Below are positions 4,341 through 55,249 of a DNA stretch of 64,000 bases, piece after piece. The stretch is from Flavobacteriales bacterium (lineage in GTDB: Bacteria; Bacteroidota; Bacteroidia; UBA10329). Within the stretch, counting starts at the first letter, position 1. Each line of letters begins with the position of its first letter. Below the pieces are notes generated by a model. That model ran no database searches, had not been told where the DNA came from, and saw only the letters and a program-made list of their open reading frames with translations. The stretch covers positions 33,947 to 97,946 of the forward strand of contig JBIKWM010000008.1 of the NCBI GenBank assembly GCA_044356305.1, written 5' to 3'. A program made the translations under genes and the position numbers.

Positions 4341-4614
4341 GGTCTGAGAATTTCAACCGAAGGTAAGTACCTGTATGGATTTAGGAACTTGGGGTAAGTG
4401 ATTCCCCGCAGTCTTACCAATAGACGTATTTATATGAGGGTGATTTAGGGGCAGTTCGCTGGGTGGCCTTGGACATTTCACGTTGCGAAACCGGGGTAAG
4501 GGAGCGTGCGCAGGCCCGAGGAAGCGTTCCGTAGAGTGAGGTCTTCCGAAAGGCCCGGAACGCGCGGAAAGCGACCGTCCCCGAGTTTCGCAGGGAAATG
4601 TCCACTAGCCTGTT

Positions 4615-10436: not shown

Positions 10437-10700
10437 TTGCCTCCGCCACCGCCACGTGTGGTGCCGCCCCCACCACATCAGGCACCCTCACCGCCATGTG
10501 TGGTGCCGCCACAGCCACTTATGGCGCCCCCACCGCCATGTGTGGTGCCGCCACAACCACATCAGGCAGCGCCACAGCCACGCATGGCAACGCCACCACC
10601 ACGTGAGGTGCCGCCACCACCACGTGCGGTGCCGCGGCCACCGCAACAGCGCCCGCCCCGACACATAATTCCATCGCCCCCCTCGCTTCCACCACAGCCA
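10437..10700. repeat. degenerate tandem repeat (~21-nt units in ~42-nt higher-order periodicity) rich in CACGTG/CATGTG cores
   Basis: Units ccaccgccacgtgtggtgccgcc / ccgccatgtgtggtgccgcc / accaccacgtgaggtgccgcc, at least 6 copies, in a divergent intergenic region. In one frame it encodes a proline-rich ORF (10437..10766) ending with an ATGA overlap onto the next gene. Confidence 0.7.
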
Positions 10701-10762: not shown

Positions 10763-11665
10763 ATGACCGACCGCCAGTCCAACACCCTCGACATGTACGT
10801 GGTAGTACTCGAGCACTATGCCGCCAACCAGACCACCATCGATGCCGTTGTCGCCCGCGCCACTGCCTATGCAGCACTCTCCACACGCGTCACAGGCATC
10901 CGCGCCCTCATAGCCGACCAGTCCGGCAACATCAGTGGCGTCACCCAGAACAAGGCCGCCCTTCGTGCCTCCCTCGACAACCTCGCCATCGGCATACTCG
11001 CCCCCGCCCTCGTCTGGGCCCGCGCAACAGATAACCTCATCCTCGCAGCCGAATTCAACTACCCATTGTCCGAGATCCAGAAGATCAAGGACGACACCAT
11101 CGCATCCTTCTGCAACCACCGCTACGCCTTGGTCAATGCCAACATCGCCACCATGGCCGACTACGGCATCACTCCCGCCATGCTCACCGCATGGAACTCC
11201 GCAATCAGCAACTACGAGGCCGTCACAGGCTCCCCACGCAGCGCCCGCGTCTCCAGATCCGTGTTCACCATCGCCCTCCGCACCCACTTCAAAGAGGCCA
11301 ACGCACTCCTCAAAAACACCCTCGACCCCCTCATGAACTCTTTCCGCACCTCCGATGCCGACCTCTACAACGGCTACCGCAGGGCACGCATCATCATCGA
11401 CCGCAGAGGCCAGAACACCGGATCCATCTCCGGCAAGGTCTCCTCCGCAGCCGACTCATCTCCCATCATCGGGGCCGAGCTATCCATCACTCCGCGCCCG
11501 TCCACCGTGCTCTCAGGCTCCGATGCCACCTACCGCTTCTCCTACCTGCCGGCCGGCATCTATACCGTCAAGTGCACCGCCCCCGGCTTCCTCCCGGCCG
11601 ACAAGACCATCGTCCTCACCTCCTCGCAGACCGCCACAGCCGACTTCGTCCTCATCCCCGCCTGA
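10763..11665 (+). CDS. hypothetical protein with C-terminal carboxypeptidase-regulatory-like beta-sandwich domain
   Basis: 300 aa. C-terminal GKVSSAADSSPIIGAELSI...YRFSYLPAGIYTVKCTAPGF...ADFVL typical CarbopepD_reg-like fold. Confidence 0.7.
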   Translation: MTDRQSNTLDMYVVVLEHYAANQTTIDAVVARATAYAALSTRVTGIRALIADQSGNISGVTQNKAALRASLDNLAIGILAPALVWARATDNLILAAEFNYPLSEIQKIKDDTIASFCNHRYALVNANIATMADYGITPAMLTAWNSAISNYEAVTGSPRSARVSRSVFTIALRTHFKEANALLKNTLDPLMNSFRTSDADLYNGYRRARIIIDRRGQNTGSISGKVSSAADSSPIIGAELSITPRPSTVLSGSDATYRFSYLPAGIYTVKCTAPGFLPADKTIVLTSSQTATADFVLIPA

Positions 11666-39723: not shown

Positions 39724-42700
39724 ATGCGCAGCACCGGCATAGGGCGAGTGTCAGCACATTTATTGGGCATAGCACTCCTTGGCTTCATTTCGTTTATTGC
39801 CCCACAAGTAGCATCAGCCCAGCCTGTTGTAGGAGAGGAGCGGCAGAGTGTGTCGAATATTCAAGGCCCCATTGAGATCAAGTGCTTCGTTAAGGAGCTC
39901 ATGAACACTATGAAAGGGGTGATTGTCACCATTTATGAAGATGCTGATGGATCGCGTACCAAACTGAATGAACTCCAGAAAATAGTCACCCCAGGCAATG
40001 GCCAGTTCACATTCAAGTTGAACATCAACAGGCTGTACATGATAGAGTACAGCAAACCGGGCTACACTTCGAAGAAGGTGGACTTTGATACCGATGTGAA
40101 GATGGCACGGCCTGAACATACCAAAGTGCCAACATTTGAATTTGAGGTGCAGATGGTAAAAGATCTTGATGGTCTGGCTTTTAAGAGTTCGGTGGCCAAG
40201 GTCTTCTATCACATCAAGCGAAATGAACTGGACTATGAGCTTGATTACTCCAAAGAGGAAATGTTGGAGGAAGAGCGCAAGATCAAGGAGTTAGAAGAGA
40301 AAAGGCGATTGGCTGAAATAGCTGCCCAGAAGAAGCTGGAGGTGGAGAATCAGGCCCTCTCAGCACGTGAAAAGGACCGGTTGGCGGCTGAGTCAAAGAT
40401 TAAGGCGGCCGTGCTGATGGGCTCAGACGAAAAGAAGGTGAAGGAGCAGTTGGTGAAAGTTTTCTCTGATGTCGATTCGCTGCGCTACAAAAAGGCCGAT
40501 GCCATGTATTTGGAGCTGCAGAAGGAGCGCCAGCGCACCGGTGGCAACAACGCAGCCATTAACTATGGCAGCATTTTCGATGCGGCTGTAAGGCTAGAGG
40601 ATAAGGTTGTGGCTGATAAGGCCGCAGCCGATGCCAAGAAGCAGGAGGAACTCAGGAAAGTAAAGACCGATGTGGTGCAGAAACAGCAGGAGGCTATCCA
40701 AAAGGAACAAGAGGCCCAGAAGCTGATAATGCAGAACAAGCTGGCACAGGCCACTGCTGCCGAGGATGCAAGGAGGGCGGCTGAGGAAAAGGCCAAGCGC
40801 GAAAGCGTGTACAATGCATTGCTCAATTCAAGCGGGAGCAAGGAAAAAGCCATTGCCAACCTGATGACGGTGTTCGCCAAGGGCGATGAATACAAGGAAG
40901 AGAAGGCCGAGGCCATGTACATGGCCTATGAGAAGGCCAGGCAAGGGGGCAAGACCTTGGCGAACATGAACTACAGCGACCTTTTCTCGGCAGCGCGTCA
41001 GGCCGAGGATGCGGCTGTAGAGAAAAAGTTGGAAGAGGAGCGCAGAAAGGGCAATGACAAGACCAACGAGATAATCAAATCGTTGGATGAGAAGAAATTA
41101 AAGGAGGAATCTGCCCAGAAAACAAAGATTGAGGCCGCACTTGCCATAGCCAAGAACGAGACCGAAAGAAAACAGGCCTTTATTGAGGCATTGCCAAAGA
41201 ACGACCCTTACCGTCAGCAGAAGGGCGAGGCCATGTATGCTGAATTCCAGAAGCAGCAGCAGGCTCTGAACACTGGTGGCTCGGCCAAAACGGGGATTGA
41301 CTTCGGTTCAATTTTCGGAGCAGCCGAGACTGCTGAGCTTACCATCAAGAACAAGGAAAAAGAGGAATTGGCCCAGGCAAAGCGCCAACAGCAGGATGCT
41401 ATAGAGTCAAAGCTCGAGACCGTGCGTTCCGAAAAGAGCAAGATGGCCCAGGAAGCCGCAACGGTTGCCCAGGATGTACAGAAACAGAAACTGGGCGAGG
41501 CTGCAAACGCCAAGGAGAAGAAGTTGGCTGATGCAATAGGTAAGGCTGAGGGCGACCGATCAAAGGCCATTCAGTCCATCATGTCGACATTTGAGAAAGG
41601 GACTGAGTACAAGCAGGAACGTGCCGAAGCCATCTATGACGCCTATCTTGCTGAAATAGTGCGGATAAAGAACTCAGGGAACACCACGACCAAAATCGAT
41701 TTCGGTAAGCTGTTCGGTGCAGCTGACAAAGCTGAACTGGAGGCAATAACCAAGCAGTATGAAGCCAAGAAGGCCGAAGAGGACCAGAGGTTGGCCAATT
41801 ACACGGCCCAGCGGACAGAGAAGGCCGTAGATCTGGCGCAGGTCAAGGCCAAGGAAGCTGAGGAGAAGGCCGCCACTGCCGCTGCGGATCTTGCCAAGAC
41901 CAAATCGGACCTTGAGAATGAACGCATCAAGCGCGATCTGGCGCTCATGAAGCAGAAGGAACAGGAGGAGAAGACCTTGGCGATGGAGGAAGCCAAGAGG
42001 GCTGCAGAACTGAGGGAACGCGAACAGGCCTCTATGTCTCAATCTGAAAAGGACAAATTAGCCGCTGCCGAGAAACTTAGAAAGGAGACCGAAGCTGCAA
42101 GGGCAAAGCTTGAGGCTGAAGAAAGACGCAAAGCGGAAATCGCACAGGCGGCAGAGGAGAAACAGCGACAGGCAGACCTTGCACTGCAATCGAAGGCCGA
42201 AAAGGAACGTCAGGCTGCTATGGACGCTCAGAAGAAGGAAGAGGAGAGACTACGTAAAGAGAAGGAACTGGCGGACGCCAAGGCCAAAGCGGAAGAGTCG
42301 AAGCGATTGGAGGCCGAGCGTGCTGAAGCTGAGAAGAAGCGTCAGGCAGAGATGGCTGCCGCAGAGCGAAAGAAGGCCGAGGAACTGGCCGCAGCCCAGA
42401 AGGCAGAACGCGAGAGGTTGCTTGCTGCCGAACAGGCTGAGAAGGACCGGTTGGCAGCTGAGAATGCTCAGCGCACAGCTGCTGAAAAGGCAGAAAAGGA
42501 CCGGATTGCAGCCGCGGAGCGCAAAAAGGCTGAGGAATTGGCCGCAGCCCAGAAGGCAGAACGCGAAAGGTTGCTTGCTGCCGAACTTGCCGAAAAGGAG
42601 AGGATTGCGGCTGAGAATGCGAAAAAGGCTGCTGAGGAGAAGGCTGAGAAAGACCGACTTGCTGCCGAGGCCGCCAAGAAAGCGGCAGACGAGAAGGCCG

Positions 42701-47363: not shown

Positions 47364-48335
47364 CTACTCCCTTTGCACCACAAGTTTACGCACTGCCACG
47401 GCACCGTTCTCAAACTGTGCTCGCACCATGTACACCCCAATGTTAAGGCCACTTACATCTATCTCCCGCACCGCACCGCCATGGCTTTGCAGATCCCGCC
47501 CGCTCAGGTCATTTATGGCCACTGTGTTTATTCGCCTGTTGCTATTGTGGCTTATGGCCACAGTTGTTGTGGCGGGGTTGGGGTAGATATCAAAGCCATA
47601 CATTTCGCTGTCTTTGACACCGTTGGGTAGTTCTATACGCCTGACGGAAACATCGTCAATAAAGTAATATGCAATTCCAGAAATTATACTTGTGTCGTTG
47701 ATAACATCTGTATCCTCATCCGTACTAAAATTCCCGATGGTTAAAAAAGATTCAGCCCCACTGGCAACGTACAGTGCATCAAAATTATACCATAAACCAG
47801 ATTCCTGCATAAATTCAATTCCTGGCCCAATTATTTGAGGTGCCACAGGCAAGAGAGGAAAGCTGCCAGTATCGGAATAAACTGGTTGTGAAGAAAAATG
47901 CATACCGATGGATTTAATGGCAGGTGCAACGTTACATGACTTTGAAATATGCATTTTAACCCTATAAGTACATCCATAAATTAAGGTTTCCTTTAGTTTA
48001 TTCGAAACATATTCTCGGCCATTTCCTGACCGTGAATAAACAATGAGACCAATCATGCCATCACCTGAATTGGTCATGTTAACGTTACAATCCATTGCCG
48101 GAATACCCACATATGGATTCATTTCATTTGCACATAAATTAAAATAATCCGGAGTGCCAGTTGTTGGGTTGTACCAATGTAACAATTTATCCACTTCACT
48201 AGGTACAAAAGGAGGACTAATTTGAGTTGGACATTCATAATACTCCTCAAATCCACCATTAGGGACAAGATTGGGTTCTTGCGAAAACCCTTTATCCGCG
48301 GCCAACAATAGACCAATAATTATTATTGCTCTCAT
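47364..48335 (-). CDS. T9SS cargo protein, CBM4/9-like N-terminal domain, type-A CTD (duplicate copy 1)
   Basis: Signal peptide. QEPNLVPNGGFEEY start typical of CBM_4_9. C-terminal ...YPNPATTTVAISHNSNRRINTV...GVYMVRAQFENG. Confidence 0.75.
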   Translation of the reverse strand: MRAIIIIGLLLAADKGFSQEPNLVPNGGFEEYYECPTQISPPFVPSEVDKLLHWYNPTTGTPDYFNLCANEMNPYVGIPAMDCNVNMTNSGDGMIGLIVYSRSGNGREYVSNKLKETLIYGCTYRVKMHISKSCNVAPAIKSIGMHFSSQPVYSDTGSFPLLPVAPQIIGPGIEFMQESGLWYNFDALYVASGAESFLTIGNFSTDEDTDVINDTSIISGIAYYFIDDVSVRRIELPNGVKDSEMYGFDIYPNPATTTVAISHNSNRRINTVAINDLSGRDLQSHGGAVREIDVSGLNIGVYMVRAQFENGAVAVRKLVVQRE

Positions 48336-48820
48336 GGTGCCAAAATAAACTTACTCGTGATTCCTGAGATTTGAATAAAGTAAACCCCACCAGCAAAGCC
48401 GTTAAGTTCTAACTTAGTTTGGCCACAATTTAGAATATTACGCTCTATAACGTGACCTAAGGGATTAGTGATCACATATTCAAACTTCTCTTCTGATACG
48501 CAACCTTCAACTCCGACCCATACGTGACGAGTAGTTGGGTTAGGATATACTATGACCTTAATGGACGATTCATCATCGTCAGTCACAGGAACTAAGTCGT
48601 CTTGTCCTCTTCTTTCAGAAGGTGGTTCTGTCAATAACTCACATTCATTGATCCATTCCCTATGCACCAATGTATCACGAGCAGAAAGTACTGCCCTTGC
48701 CAGATAAACTGAACTTCCTGAATCAAGCGGGCAAGCCGATGCCAAGGATTCGAGCCATGGCAGATCGACACTGTCGGGCATGGTGTTCTCTGACCAATGT
48801 GTGATGTTATAGGCCATCAT
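48332..48820 (-). CDS. CTD-only ORF (T9SS sorting domain without signal peptide); possible gene fragment
   Basis: C-terminal ...VIVYPNPTTRHVWV...GGVYFIQI. No N-terminal signal. 4-nt overlap with the downstream cargo gene. Confidence 0.5.
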   Translation of the reverse strand: MMAYNITHWSENTMPDSVDLPWLESLASACPLDSGSSVYLARAVLSARDTLVHREWINECELLTEPPSERRGQDDLVPVTDDDESSIKVIVYPNPTTRHVWVGVEGCVSEEKFEYVITNPLGHVIERNILNCGQTKLELNGFAGGVYFIQISGITSKFILAP

Positions 48821-48859
48821 CCTGGTTAAGGTACGTTCAGCATCATAAACTACAGGTTG

Positions 48860-49804
48860 CTACTCCCTCTGCACCACAAGTTTACGCACCGCCACGGCAC
48901 CGTTCTCAAACTGTGCTCGCGCCATGTACACCCCATTGTTAAGGCCACTCACATCTATCTCCCGCACCGCACCGCCATGGCTTTGCAGATCCCGCCCACT
49001 CAGGTCAGTTATGGTTACAGTACTTATTCGCCTGTTGCTTTTGTGGCTTATGGCCACAGTTGTTGTGGTGGGGTTGGGGTAAAGTTCAAAGTTCAGTTGC
49101 TCATAATCTTTTATTCTATTGGGTGGATCTACACGTTTGACTGAGACATCGTCTATGAAGTAATAGGCCATTTGCAATCCACCGGGCAATAACTGAAATG
49201 GCGTTTCACTATCCAATAAAAAATTGCCTATTGTCAGGAACAACTCCCCTCCATTTGCAAGCAGGGTATCAATATACTCAAACCAATGGTGGACATCACT
49301 GAGTATAACAGAAGGATCATGATTTAGAGATGGTGTTAAACTCAATGTTGAATGATCAACATTCATTTCTGAAATTGAATCAATTGAAAAGTGAGTTCCA
49401 AATGAACCAATATATCCGATACAACATGTAGATATTGGTCTCAATTGGACTGAAGTTTCATAGTACTGGTTGTAAAGCAAAGGCTCAGTTAATTTAGTAG
49501 ATAAATATTCTTTAACGCCATATAAGCCAAGGCCAATCATTCCATTTCCCTCATATGGATAAACTGAATTACTCCCGAAATTGCAAGGGACTCCGTAATC
49601 GGAAATTATTTCATTTGCACAGATATGAAATAATTCAGGTGTACAATTCGAAGGAATAAACCAACTTGCAGCAAAGGCCCCTTGGCCTCCTTGAGAAGGA
49701 CATTGTATATATTCTTCAAACCCACCATTTGGCACTAAATTGGGTTCTTGTGCGGTACAGAACCCAAAAAAAGAAGAAAAGCACATTAAGGACACCTTTC
49801 TCAT
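48860..49804 (-). CDS. T9SS cargo protein paralogue (duplicate copy 2)
   Basis: Start ATG 49804 (MRKVSLMCFSSFFGFCTAQEPNLVPNGGFEEY). The 3' 230 nt are ~95% identical to 47364-47640. Confidence 0.75.
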   Translation of the reverse strand: MRKVSLMCFSSFFGFCTAQEPNLVPNGGFEEYIQCPSQGGQGAFAASWFIPSNCTPELFHICANEIISDYGVPCNFGSNSVYPYEGNGMIGLGLYGVKEYLSTKLTEPLLYNQYYETSVQLRPISTCCIGYIGSFGTHFSIDSISEMNVDHSTLSLTPSLNHDPSVILSDVHHWFEYIDTLLANGGELFLTIGNFLLDSETPFQLLPGGLQMAYYFIDDVSVKRVDPPNRIKDYEQLNFELYPNPTTTTVAISHKSNRRISTVTITDLSGRDLQSHGGAVREIDVSGLNNGVYMARAQFENGAVAVRKLVVQRE

Positions 49805-49945
49805 GGCACCAAAATAATTTTGTTGGTGACCCCTGAGATTTGAATAAAATACAATCCCCCCGGCCCGCGCGAGTGTTCCGTAGGACCACTCGTGTGGTGT
49901 GGAACACGATCGGTCTGTGACCGATCTAACAACTAGGCATTCCAT
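49805..49945 (-). pseudogene. degraded remnant of a second CTD-only ORF
   Basis: Reverse strand encodes ...GGIVFYSNL.., aligning with the GGVYFIQISGITSKF tail of 48332..48820. Flanking nt similarity exists (tgagatttgaataaa). Confidence 0.4.
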
Positions 49946-50171: not shown

Positions 50172-51125
50172 CTACACCGTAAGGCTCAGCCGCGTTGTTG
50201 CCCCGCTCTCGTTCACAACTGTGATGTGGCGGTGGGTGGTGTAGTCGGTTATACCGAATGCGGCTGCGGCAAAGCGCAGGTCGGCATCGGTGTTAACCAC
50301 CACCGGGGTGCTGTCTACCCCGCCCGGTGTGGAGGCCAGGAAGATGTGTACACGGCCTGGGCCGGTGAGTTTGGCGCGCAGCTCGTCATCGGCCAGCAGG
50401 GTGCGTGTGGCCACATCGTGCCGCTCGGCCACGTCAAGGCTCATGGTGAAGGTCTGCTGCTCGGGGTTGCGGAGGGTCTCGAGGTCGAAGATGGCGTTGC
50501 AGAGCATCTCGCGGTCATCGAAGTAGGCGTCAATCACCACGCCCATGTTGCGGTACTGCATGTTCATGGCGGCCAGGCGGGCGGCCTCCACGGCTCCGCT
50601 GTTAACCAGTTTTCCACCCTTGGCACCCTCCTGGGCGGTGCGGGCGGCCACCAGGGCCGAGTGGGTGCTGTCCACCGCAGTCTTCACTGCGGCCAGGGCC
50701 ACATCGGTGCCAATGGCATTGCTCAGGTCTTGGAATGCATCGATGCGAAGTTCCAGCCCGCCCTGGCGGAAGGGCTTGCGACCGTTGGGGAAAATGCCCC
50801 TGTAGCGGGCGGTGGTCTTGGGGTACACCACCTGCACCTGCACATCCCACCCATCGAGGTCGAGCATGGCCTGGTCCATAAGCTGGCGCACCGTGAGGGT
50901 CTCTTCCTCCTGGGTGCCGCCTGCTGTGCGCCATGCACTGTAGCCGTTCATGAGCGCCAGGTGCAGCGGGTGGTAGCGGGTGTAAAGCGGGGCCAGCAGC
51001 GGGTAGGTGGTCTGGGCCGAGAGCAGCCGTGCATCGTGAAAGTGGCTCAGCTTGACGGCCTTCTTGTAGCTGGTCTCGGTTTCGGAATCGAACTGATTGC
51101 CGATGTATTTCCAGGGTTGTTCCAT
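50172..51125 (-). CDS. hypothetical protein
   Basis: 317-aa ORF with ordinary composition. The overlapping + ORF 50094..51155 is G/H/V/A-rich antisense artefact. Confidence 0.6.
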   Translation of the reverse strand: MEQPWKYIGNQFDSETETSYKKAVKLSHFHDARLLSAQTTYPLLAPLYTRYHPLHLALMNGYSAWRTAGGTQEEETLTVRQLMDQAMLDLDGWDVQVQVVYPKTTARYRGIFPNGRKPFRQGGLELRIDAFQDLSNAIGTDVALAAVKTAVDSTHSALVAARTAQEGAKGGKLVNSGAVEAARLAAMNMQYRNMGVVIDAYFDDREMLCNAIFDLETLRNPEQQTFTMSLDVAERHDVATRTLLADDELRAKLTGPGRVHIFLASTPGGVDSTPVVVNTDADLRFAAAAFGITDYTTHRHITVVNESGATTRLSLTV

Positions 51126-51227
51126 GGCTTGATGGTCTTTAGTGATGAGTTATGATGGTCAGGTATTGATACAGCAGTAAAAAGCGGTGTCTGCGCCCGG
51201 GCCGTGTCCGAGCGGTTGTGCCTCGGC

Positions 51228-51521
51228 CGTGGCAGTGCCAATGGAGTTCTCCCTTAGGGGTGAAACGGTCGTGGCAGTGCCAATGGAGTTCTCCCTTACC
51301 AGTGAAACGGCTGTGGCAGTGCCAATGGAGTTCTCCCTTACCAGTGAAACGGTCGTGGCAGTGCCAATGGAGTTCTCCCTACCAGTGAAACGGTCGTGGC
51401 AGTGCCAATGGAGTTCTCCCTTACCATTGAAACGGTCGTGGCAGTGCCAATGGAGTTCTCCCTTACCAGTGAAACGGTTGTGGCAGTGCCAATGGAGTTC
51501 TCCCTTACCAGTGAAACGGCT
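51228..51521. repeat. 42-nt tandem minisatellite, about 7 copies
   Basis: Unit gtggcagtgccaatggagttctcccttaccagtgaaacggtc. One unit has a 1-nt deletion that breaks any reading frame. Confidence 0.85.
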
Positions 51522-51590
51522 GTGAAGGTGCCTGAGCCAAAAGGTGCGGCCAGTGTAAGGCCTGCATAGAAGGAATGGTTGTTCAGAGAA

Positions 51591-51611
51591 TCTCTCTCTC
51601 TCTCTCTCTCT
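51591..51611. repeat. (TC)10 dinucleotide microsatellite
   Basis: aatctctctctctctctctctcttt, directly 3' of the minisatellite. Confidence 0.85.
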
Positions 51612-51777
51612 TTACGGCCACGCGGGTTTCAGCGCGTTGGGCTGATCTGTGAAGGCCCTTAGCTTCAATATGATATGAGAATGAAGCGGCCATTTCTGTG
51701 GGGCGAAATGTATGGGTTTTTCAAACATCTGCAACAAAATGGAAATATTTTTTCAGCACTGTGCCCACTTGGCCCTT

Positions 51778-52227
51778 TCACCCCCTGCGCATGGCCACGA
51801 GGCGGTGGCCCATCAGCGGGCCGAGCCAGGTATTGAAAAGGTCTCTCCGCCTGATGATGGTGGGGTGGCAGGCCCCGCACAGGGCGAATCCTATCCGACC
51901 ATAAAAACCCTCGAGTCCGGGCTTGCAGAGCAGGTACACATCGGTGTACTGGCCTAGCACCCCGTGCAGCAGGGTGGTGGAGAGGCCCTGGCCCCTGTGG
52001 GCGGGGTAGGTGTAAACGGTGCCCAGCTCGGTGATGCCGCCCATGCGCTTGATGGTGACGAATGTGGCCATGGAGCCATCGGGCGCGGTGAGGTAGTAGA
52101 GGTCGGAGTTGAGCAGGATGGCCAATGGGTCGAGGGTGGGGGTGTGGCGCACAATGGTGGCCACGGCCCGCGGGTGGCGCAGCACCTTGGAGCGGATGGG
52201 CCCCACCGCTGCCCGGCCGGCCGTCAT
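51778..52227 (-). CDS. GNAT-family N-acetyltransferase
   Basis: Start ATG 52227 (MTAGRAAV...). The track extends it with a TTG start through the upstream gene's 3' end. Motif A-like YPAHRGQGLSTTLL. Confidence 0.65.
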   Translation of the reverse strand: MTAGRAAVGPIRSKVLRHPRAVATIVRHTPTLDPLAILLNSDLYYLTAPDGSMATFVTIKRMGGITELGTVYTYPAHRGQGLSTTLLHGVLGQYTDVYLLCKPGLEGFYGRIGFALCGACHPTIIRRRDLFNTWLGPLMGHRLVAMRRG

Positions 52228-54734: not shown

Positions 54735-54968
54735 ATGAACGCACGAGAAGAACTGCACCGGGTCATTGACTCAATTGAAGATGAAAAGACCGTGGAAGGA
54801 TATCTCGAGCTTATCAGGTCAATCATTCGCGAACAGCGCGGAGGGCTCATATCGTCACTTTCTGCTGCACAGCGATCTGAGCTTTATGCGAGTTGGGCCG
54901 AGAGTGAGACGGATATGGTGGAAAGGACCACTGCCATGGTCATGGCAAGGTTCGAATCGTTGAGATGA
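54735..54968 (+). CDS. putative antitoxin of the ParE/RelE pair
   Basis: 77 aa; 4-nt overlap with the toxin gene. Confidence 0.55.
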   Translation: MNAREELHRVIDSIEDEKTVEGYLELIRSIIREQRGGLISSLSAAQRSELYASWAESETDMVERTTAMVMARFESLR

Positions 54969-55249
54969 AGGTAATCTGGACCCCGAAGGCCGAGAAGAGC
55001 TTGGTCGAGGTGGTGGAATTCCTTACAGAGCATTGGGGCATAAAGGCAGCGCGCTCCTTTGTCCTTCTGACTGAGGACCTCACAGATAAGCTATCCAGAT
55101 TCCCCGAACTCGGTCCGGTTGAAGATGAGGAAAAGGGTATAAGGGGAATACTTCTGACCCCGCACAACAGGCTGTTCTATCGTATCAAAGGAGAGGCCGT
55201 TGTGATTCTATCGGTGTTCGACACACGGTCCGAAAGGCCGAAGTTCTGA
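54965..55249 (+). CDS. type II toxin, ParE/RelE family
   Basis: 94 aa, MKVIWTPKAEKSL...LFYRIKGEAVVILSVFDTR typical ParE/RelE. Confidence 0.75.
   Translation: MKVIWTPKAEKSLVEVVEFLTEHWGIKAARSFVLLTEDLTDKLSRFPELGPVEDEEKGIRGILLTPHNRLFYRIKGEAVVILSVFDTRSERPKF

Follow-up and report, generated by a model that had tools for sequence, protein, structure and literature searches.

A 42-nucleotide stem-loop array and a gene for a 317-residue protein of novel predicted fold suggest an undescribed two-part module in Bacteroidota

Introduction

In a chromosomal region of a Flavobacteriales bacterium, a head-to-tail array of 42-nt repeats and a dinucleotide tract stand in front of a gene for a 317-aa protein, which raises the question of what such an array does there. 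Dinucleotide tracts in promoter spacers are known from the promoter-proximal contingency loci of Haemophilus and Neisseria, and the first-pass annotation read both repeats as slipped-strand phase-variation switches. Gene-linked repeat arrays have also repeatedly proved to be the RNA components of new systems, namely CRISPR, type III toxin-antitoxin and TIGR-Tas. Here, the locus was analysed within the window, i.e. the whole stretch of 64,000 nt that was examined, and compared with homologous loci. The results suggest that it belongs to a large and hitherto undescribed group of two-part modules, which combine a 42-nt stem-loop array with a 317-aa protein of novel fold.

The array in the window

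The window offers a chromosomal Bacteroidota context, with Mfd, an M1 peptidase carrying a T9SS sorting tail and three more T9SS-tail genes. The array occupies positions 51229–51520 on the minus strand; downstream of it in gene direction lies the gene for the 317-aa protein (50172–51125, minus strand), in agreement with the original assignment, and its other flanking gene is GNAT-like (51778–52227, minus strand). Tandem Repeats Finder (TRF), the check that had been proposed, recovered both repeats: the array as 51224–51519 (period 42, 7.1 copies, 94% matches, score 529) and the dinucleotide tract, (AG)10.5 on the gene strand and (TC)10.5 on the plus strand, at 51591–51611, upstream of the array. 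Slicing anchored on GTGGCAGTGCC yielded unit starts at 51229, 51271, 51313, 51355, 51396, 51438 and 51480, one nucleotide later than the array start of 51228 given before; six units measure 42 nt and the fourth (51355) 41 nt, a count that assumes that the seventh unit reaches into the CT at 51520–51521. The seven copies, one of them of 41 nt, and the (TC)10 tract are thus confirmed by TRF and unit slicing.

Positions 1–26 are identical in all seven units, and variation is limited to 2–5 positions. On the gene strand, the units (..CCGTTTCACTGGTAAGGGAGAACTCCATTGGCACTGCCACGA..) each contain an imperfect hairpin, TGGTAAGGGAGAACTCCATTGGCA, as well as a perfect palindrome, TGGCAGTGCCA. The array is far beyond chance, because the unit motifs have no other occurrence in the 64-kb window. 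Dispersed palindromes of the REP/BIME kind were rejected, given this confinement to one locus and the tie of the arrays to a single gene family. CRISPR, already dismissed in the first-pass annotation, was rejected as well: the units follow each other head to tail without spacers, and there are no cas genes among the ten ORFs scanned at 43.9–58.7 kb.

Along the minus strand, the GNAT stop codon is followed by an AT-rich stretch, a small inverted repeat (ACGCG-N8-CGCGT, 51620–51637), the (AG)10 tract, ~27 nt, a degenerate unit, the seven units, the spacer and the ATG. The inverted repeat and the (AG)n tract are separated by 8 nt (GGCCGTAA). The degenerate eighth unit (51522–51563, minus strand), delimited by slicing and in the D1 register, is a decayed terminal copy and the first in gene direction; the family D1 register continues to 51574 at lower identity. 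The array does not lie immediately before the (TC) run, as had been stated: the two are ~70 nt apart, or 27 nt counting the degenerate unit. The distance from the tract itself to the start codon is ~465 nt and includes the array.

The spacer from the array to the start codon (51126–51228, minus strand) is 103 nt long. It comprises a weak GC-rich hairpin and a U5 run (T-run 51179–51183, gene strand; dG -12.9) and, after this run and before the ATG, an A-rich stretch; a consensus terminator scan found none. An A-rich element 10–20 nt before the ATG is shared by most family loci (CTTAAAAAC, CCCTAAAAAC). Its window form is CACTAAAGAC (~51137–51150), and in one subfamily the element is preceded by TTAATTAATC. 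A tRNA/tmRNA scan found none, and in Rfam 15, searched with gathering and E-value thresholds for the window and 20 related loci, no family covers the arrays.

Association of the array with a gene family

DNA around homologues of the 317-aa gene was taken from MAGs and metagenomes, and TRF was applied to the 1 kb upstream of each gene. Overall, a tandem array precedes the family gene in ~51 of the 53 loci with readable upstream DNA, and arrays of the same period as in the window stand before ~50 homologous genes. At the genome loci, TRF detected a period-42 array in 36 of 41 cases (period 41 in L044), with 2.2–12 copies and nearly all ending 37–181 nt before the start codon; of the metagenome loci, all 14 that include upstream sequence have an array of period 42. 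Two loci with long upstream sequence that were missed by TRF, L040 and L046, gave lag-42 autocorrelation peaks of 0.58 and 0.49, which indicates degenerate arrays. Distant members with 28–38% protein identity carry arrays of 42 nt x 6.6 (L068), 41 nt x 7.8 (L070) and 42/84 nt (L071). The only exceptions are L019, where the array is 650 nt away, and L032, where just 180 nt of upstream sequence can be read. Across the family, the array is always on the 5' side and ends 37–254 nt from the start codon. The repeat sequences are unrelated between most loci, the period being 42 nt (41 nt in L044 and L070), and an exact search for the window unit in metagenome contigs gave no match. Almost all strong tandem arrays in the 404 kb of collected locus sequence are family arrays. 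The array is almost certainly a conserved partner of the 317-aa gene, and further members may be sought by a simple rule: a family gene with a period-42 array 40–250 nt upstream.

The arrays leave traces in public data. Short-read contigs stop inside them (L001, L004, L007, L008, L051, L055, L060 and L069), and gene callers put doubtful ORFs of 80–180 aa on them, on either strand (e.g. L050 5556–5885; L003 4638–4982). Contig breaks and ORF calls at the arrays are a systematic assembly and annotation artefact of the family, which the arrays explain.

Individual loci show further peculiarities. At L014 and L017 (2830–2990 in both), an insertion of ~130 nt separates array and gene; it contains two GC-rich hairpins (CCACCCCGCACGGGGTGG, GCGACCCCTTGCGGGGTCG) and a promoter-like box (TATGTTTG), and its appearance is that of a small insert, mobile or regulatory. 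At L071 (2080–2300), alternate units carry one segment inverted (AACGAAGTCTGATGAC vs GTCATCTGACTTCGTT), and the units contain CUGA...UGAUGA, similar to box D'/C' of C/D RNAs and not seen in the window units.

The partner protein

The 317-aa protein has no match in Pfam, PHROGs, PADLOC, NCBIfam or by PDB sequence profile. A profile search of 1.84 billion representatives returned 1,278 clusters at E<=0.001 and 623 at E<=1e-30, giving a family size of at least 1,278 clusters at 50% identity, and the numerous homologues are ~317 aa long. An AlphaFold2 model based on 41 homologues (pLDDT 94) predicts a helical bundle in which two 59-residue helices predominate; the tip that joins them is conserved (IFPNGRKPF), and an eight-strand beta-sandwich follows in the C-terminal part (residues 225–316). 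Foldseek searches of the PDB and BFVD gave partial, low-TM matches only: of the helices to a TcA toxin shell, and of the sandwich to cupin/PirA-like or small phage proteins. Neither these searches nor the fold comparison revealed a ToxN/Kid/MazF, Nop or known nucleic-acid-binding fold. The family is acidic to neutral (median pI 6.0; N-domain 7.8, C-domain 4.85), and its near-invariant residues are mostly aromatic or hydrophobic with a few polar ones, forming no evident catalytic set. The pI, the fold and the residues together make direct RNA binding less likely, though still conceivable, and argue against a ToxN-like nuclease.

No homologue was found in collections of phages, plasmids and viral contigs. 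Many MAGs contain 2–4 diverged copies of the family gene, and no neighbouring gene, DNA-binding genes included, is conserved across the family loci. The commonest neighbours are genes for T9SS cargo (Por_Secre_tail or CHU_C, often with PKD or SprB repeats), which account for ~20 of 134 neighbouring ORFs in the flanks of L009–L059 and occur on either side of the module in either orientation; they may reflect a functional link or merely mark variable genome regions. Downstream of the family gene in L040, at 4342–4378, an Rfam DUF805b RNA motif scores 44 bits, above the gathering score, and is probably unrelated to the module.

Hairpins, covariation and selection

Per unit, the arrays hold an imperfect inverted repeat of ~10 pairs, in which 85% of cells are Watson-Crick paired when all copies are counted. 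Covariation was assessed in a gap-free aligned subfamily with the outer stem ATTTGC/GCAAAT (alignment A3). In its inner stem, AU, UA, GC and CG are all found at the same pair positions: 101 double-change cells stand against 60 +/- 5.7 in shuffles (0/500 reach 101) and 23–63 with the partners slid, and pairing amounts to 69% vs 26–49% when slid. Within the arrays of L040 and L041, successive units have different yet self-complementary stems beside constant motifs. When array folding was compared with shuffles, L040 reached z = -9.3; the window array, taken as RNA, was no more stable than its shuffles (z = -0.65). A within-array permutation test for covariation had little power, most arrays being too homogeneous, and its signals in the window array and L028 were discarded as register artefacts from indels.

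Purifying selection is indicated by several pairs of related loci, in which conservation of the units exceeds that of 4-fold degenerate sites: 86 vs 61% for L027/L031, 90 vs 50% for L033/L037 and 98 vs 77% for L017/L043, each pair coming from different MAGs and being taken as orthologues. At other pairs, near-identical proteins are preceded by unrelated hairpins. This is the case for L041/L042, which are paralogues in one MAG with 88%-identical proteins, and for L010/L013 and L010/L011 from different MAGs, with 91–93% identity; in all three pairs the unrelated hairpins sit next to a shared single-stranded motif. As read from the sequences, unrelated hairpins beside near-identical proteins suggest cognate specificity.

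RNA, DNA or a leader?

Several features of the arrays bear on the level at which they act. On the gene strand, the unpaired positions are rich in A (212 A vs 128 T), with A exceeding T in 24 arrays and the reverse in 9. G.U pairs on the gene strand are not in excess over A.C mismatches (67 vs 90 in all copies; 52 vs 79 in a second count), and the apical loops read GAAC in some loci and GTTC in others, the two orientations leaving room for a DNA-level or antisense role. At the DNA level, the units could be phased sites for a regulator or nucleoid protein, or cruciforms, that control transcription of the gene: 42 equals 4 x 10.5 bp, i.e. four helical turns, and the palindrome in each window unit, the loop centres in both orientations and the lacking G.U bias are all in line with such an element. 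However, the stems covary and differ both within arrays and between near-identical proteins, as fits base-pairing and not a fixed half-site; moreover, the unpaired bases are asymmetric relative to the gene strand, no DNA-binding gene is conserved nearby and the period of 41 nt in L044 and L070 drifts from helical phase. We regard a DNA-level element as quite unlikely. Since stem covariation is not expected of a sequence-specific DNA site, RNA on the gene strand is favoured, as it is by the A-rich unpaired positions and by the hairpin with a T-run that directly follows the last unit in about half of the loci, and we lean towards the array acting as RNA.

A related DNA-level comparison is with centromere and iteron arrays. 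The sopC locus of the F plasmid consists of 12 x 43 bp with an inverted repeat in each, and units of ~42–43 bp with an inverted repeat beside a presumed partner gene are likewise found here. In contrast to such arrays, the present ones are chromosomal, with up to four diverged copies per genome, and have covarying stems and no fixed binding sequence. An iteron or centromere array was rejected, as genes for ParA, ParB or Rep are lacking, homologues on plasmids or phages were not found and no neighbour is conserved.

A hairpin with a T-run after the last unit was seen in 16 of 34 loci, and a terminator between array and gene is absent or weak in about half. A consensus promoter scan around both window repeats, which covers Bacteroidota promoters poorly, gave no match, and the Bacteroidota -7 box TAnnTTTG had too few matches around the arrays to place a promoter. 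If the array is RNA, it might be a purely cis-acting 5' UTR leader that influences mRNA stability, attenuation or translation via host factors, the encoded protein not binding it. The constant 5' position at 37–254 nt from the ATG, the many loci without a convincing terminator, in which co-transcription is likely, the conserved A-rich CTTAAAAAC-like element directly before the ATG and the acidic protein, unlike an RNA binder, all speak for a leader of this kind. Such a leader has no evident reason to keep a strict period of 42 +/- 1 nt across proteins that are just 28% identical, however, and it leaves unexplained why hairpins differ between paralogues of one genome; we consider it unlikely.

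Coding potential of the array

With 42 nt corresponding to 14 codons, the array might instead encode a small partner protein of the 317-aa protein, built of 14-residue repeats and being either a repeat peptide or a multi-core precursor. On each strand, two of the three reading frames of the window unit lack stops. The 41-nt copy had been held to break any ORF; nevertheless, a 112-aa ORF on the plus strand (51187–51525) and one stop-free frame on the minus strand, which lacks a start codon, span the window array. Across the family, the sense frame is open in 33 of 39 arrays, gene callers predict ORFs of 90–182 aa over the arrays, and in one clade (L003, L014, L017 and L043) a conserved ATGAACAAC start is located right before the array. 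Against this, the antisense frame is open in 29 of 39, near chance for a 14-codon unit, and six of the 39 arrays, among them the entire core of the ATTTGCTG subfamily, lack an open sense frame; together with the two period-41 arrays, these indicate that a peptide is not required. The putative repeat peptides are unrelated between clades and not protein-like, and substitutions keep pairing rather than residues. A repeat-peptide ORF with a start codon in all members fails on the six closed arrays, on the window, which has no gene-strand start, and on the two period-41 loci. We judge a peptide-coding function highly improbable.

A close strain and the dinucleotide tract

The close strain used for comparison, the contig L050 from another metagenome, is 98.7% identical to the window over 7.3 kb with the same gene order, and its protein falls into the same 90%-identity cluster as that of the window. 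Its array has seven units as in the window, all of 42 nt, so that the 41-nt unit of the window represents a private 1-nt deletion. Between the two, the array region is more diverged (95–97% identity) than the flanks, while the array-gene spacer is 100% identical; substitutions cluster in a 2-nt linker position and the hairpin is invariant. The (AG)n tract of L050 is one dinucleotide unit shorter and interrupted by one substitution, with ~170 nt on each side identical. Upstream of the arrays in L041 and L042, whose proteins are 39–40% identical to that of the window, there is an (AG)12 tract with a comparable flank of the ACGCG..CGCGT type, and a dinucleotide tract is present in only 3 of ~50 loci. 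Its difference from L050 and its retention in a small clade mark the tract as mutable and are compatible with an accessory tuning role.

If slipped-strand phase variation operated here, changes in unit copy number, in (TC)n length or in both would switch the downstream gene on and off. The shorter, interrupted tract of L050 between identical flanks, the (AG)12 kept at the equivalent place in L041 and L042 and the range of 2–12 copies between loci are in keeping with this explanation, and a (TC)10 tract upstream of a gene with a one-unit difference between close strains recalls contingency loci. Unlike in those, the tract is found ~465 nt from the start codon behind the array, and few family members have one. 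Moreover, both strains have seven copies (a single strain pair), the period is conserved family-wide with purifying selection in related-locus pairs, and the promoter scans found none overlapping either repeat. As a switch of the gene by either repeat, phase variation appears very unlikely. The proposal of slipped-strand switching fails for the 42-nt array, which is family-wide and has seven copies in both strains; the one-unit difference lets it survive as an accessory possibility for the (TC)n tract, where alone phase variation is plausible. The 42-nt array is a conserved functional part of the locus and not an idiosyncratic slippage product.

A possible cognate RNA-protein mechanism

Array and 317-aa gene could work as one conserved two-part module in the following manner: The array would be transcribed in gene direction, either as a leader or as a separate upstream transcript, and the transcript would fold into ~7 stem-loops, one per 42-nt unit. 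These stem-loops may form the cognate RNA partner of the protein, the unit modules binding and titrating the product or the product binding its own leader. On this view, it is the geometry of the RNA-protein assembly that would dictate the constant spacing of 42 nt. The (TC)10/(AG)10 tract would be an accessory element upstream of the array, slippage of which may tune transcription. In this scheme, the association of array and gene, the conserved period, the hairpin with its covarying stems and the purifying selection on the units in several related-locus pairs are observed; transcription, action at the RNA level and binding by the protein are inferred. The full cognate mechanism is our tentative preference and seems quite possible. 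That the module represents a new class of prokaryotic RNA-protein systems, whose protein, with a new fold of helical bundle plus jelly-roll, assembles on, or is neutralized or guided by, its own 42-nt stem-loop RNAs, is a more doubtful proposition. Were it to hold, the module would parallel type III toxin-antitoxin, CRISPR and TIGR in function while being independent in evolution, and paralogue-specific hairpins would insulate the copies within one cell. A family of >1,000 clusters that is absent from Pfam, Rfam and defence-system catalogues provides a testable candidate for an RNA-protein partnership in environmental Bacteroidota.

Comparison with known systems

The literature on 42-nt or 42-bp bacterial repeats yielded nothing relevant, and no description of these arrays was found. 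In their organization, they are reminiscent of type III toxin-antitoxin systems (toxIN, cptIN and tenpIN), which have repeats of 31–46 nt in 2–5.5 copies (Blower et al. 2012, PMC3401426). Both have an array of short direct repeats directly in front of one co-oriented protein gene, the repeats differ widely between homologues, and several copies per genome occur in variable contexts. The hairpin and U-run that often separate array and gene in type III systems are inconsistent here (16/34 loci). The proteins differ: 317 aa are to be compared with ~170–200 aa for type III toxins, and the present protein is acidic, combines a helical bundle with a beta-sandwich and matches neither ToxN, CptN, TenpN nor Kid/MazF by sequence or fold. 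As for the arrays, the units here are simple hairpins, not demonstrated pseudoknots, and their period is nearly invariant.

TIGR-Tas systems comprise a Nop-domain protein and units with two variable 8–12-nt spacers flanked by box C/D (Faure et al. 2025, PMC12045711). Tandem stem-loop units beside a compact protein with a long coiled coil are common to both (PMC12045711; bioRxiv 10.64898/2026.09.09.750476), the stems of some arrays here (L040, L041) are 'variable but consistently palindromic', and the arrays are similarly poorly conserved in sequence and missed by standard annotation. In contrast to TIGR-Tas, the 317-aa protein has no Nop domain according to Pfam, PDB sequence profile and Foldseek, the window units are 94% identical and without a variable spacer pair, the arrays are always upstream, and the hosts, phages or parasitic bacteria in TIGR-Tas, are free-living Bacteroidota here. 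Inspection of the window unit by eye for UGAUGA/CUGA motifs (box C/D) found none that is consistent.

Surroundings of the locus

Further features of the window were noted beside the module. A low-GC island at 47364–49945 (minus strand; 42% vs ~58%) holds three consecutive genes with T9SS C-terminal sorting domains; it is where L050 differs from the window, by an insertion or deletion and a diverged paralogue. On the plus strand, 54735–55249 is likely a ParDE-type type II toxin-antitoxin pair: the 94-aa ORF at 54965–55249 matches ParE_toxin (E 9e-12), and an upstream 77-aa ORF overlaps its start.

Two other tandem repeats are present. A GC-rich one at 10443–10649 has nested periods of 21/42/84 (CCGCCACCGCCACGTGTGGTG..., 68–78% matches) and lies ~115 nt from a downstream 300-aa ORF (10763–11665, plus strand). 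It was rejected as a second module, since the ORF carries a CarboxypepD_reg domain and has no relation to the 317-aa family (hhalign probability 0.1); the repeat could belong to a broken gene or be coding sequence rich in Pro. The other, at 42351–42667, consists of 2.1 copies of 153 nt (79% matches) within A-rich sequence that shows a strong AT skew (~40–44 kb) and probably codes for an Ala/Glu/Lys-rich repeat.
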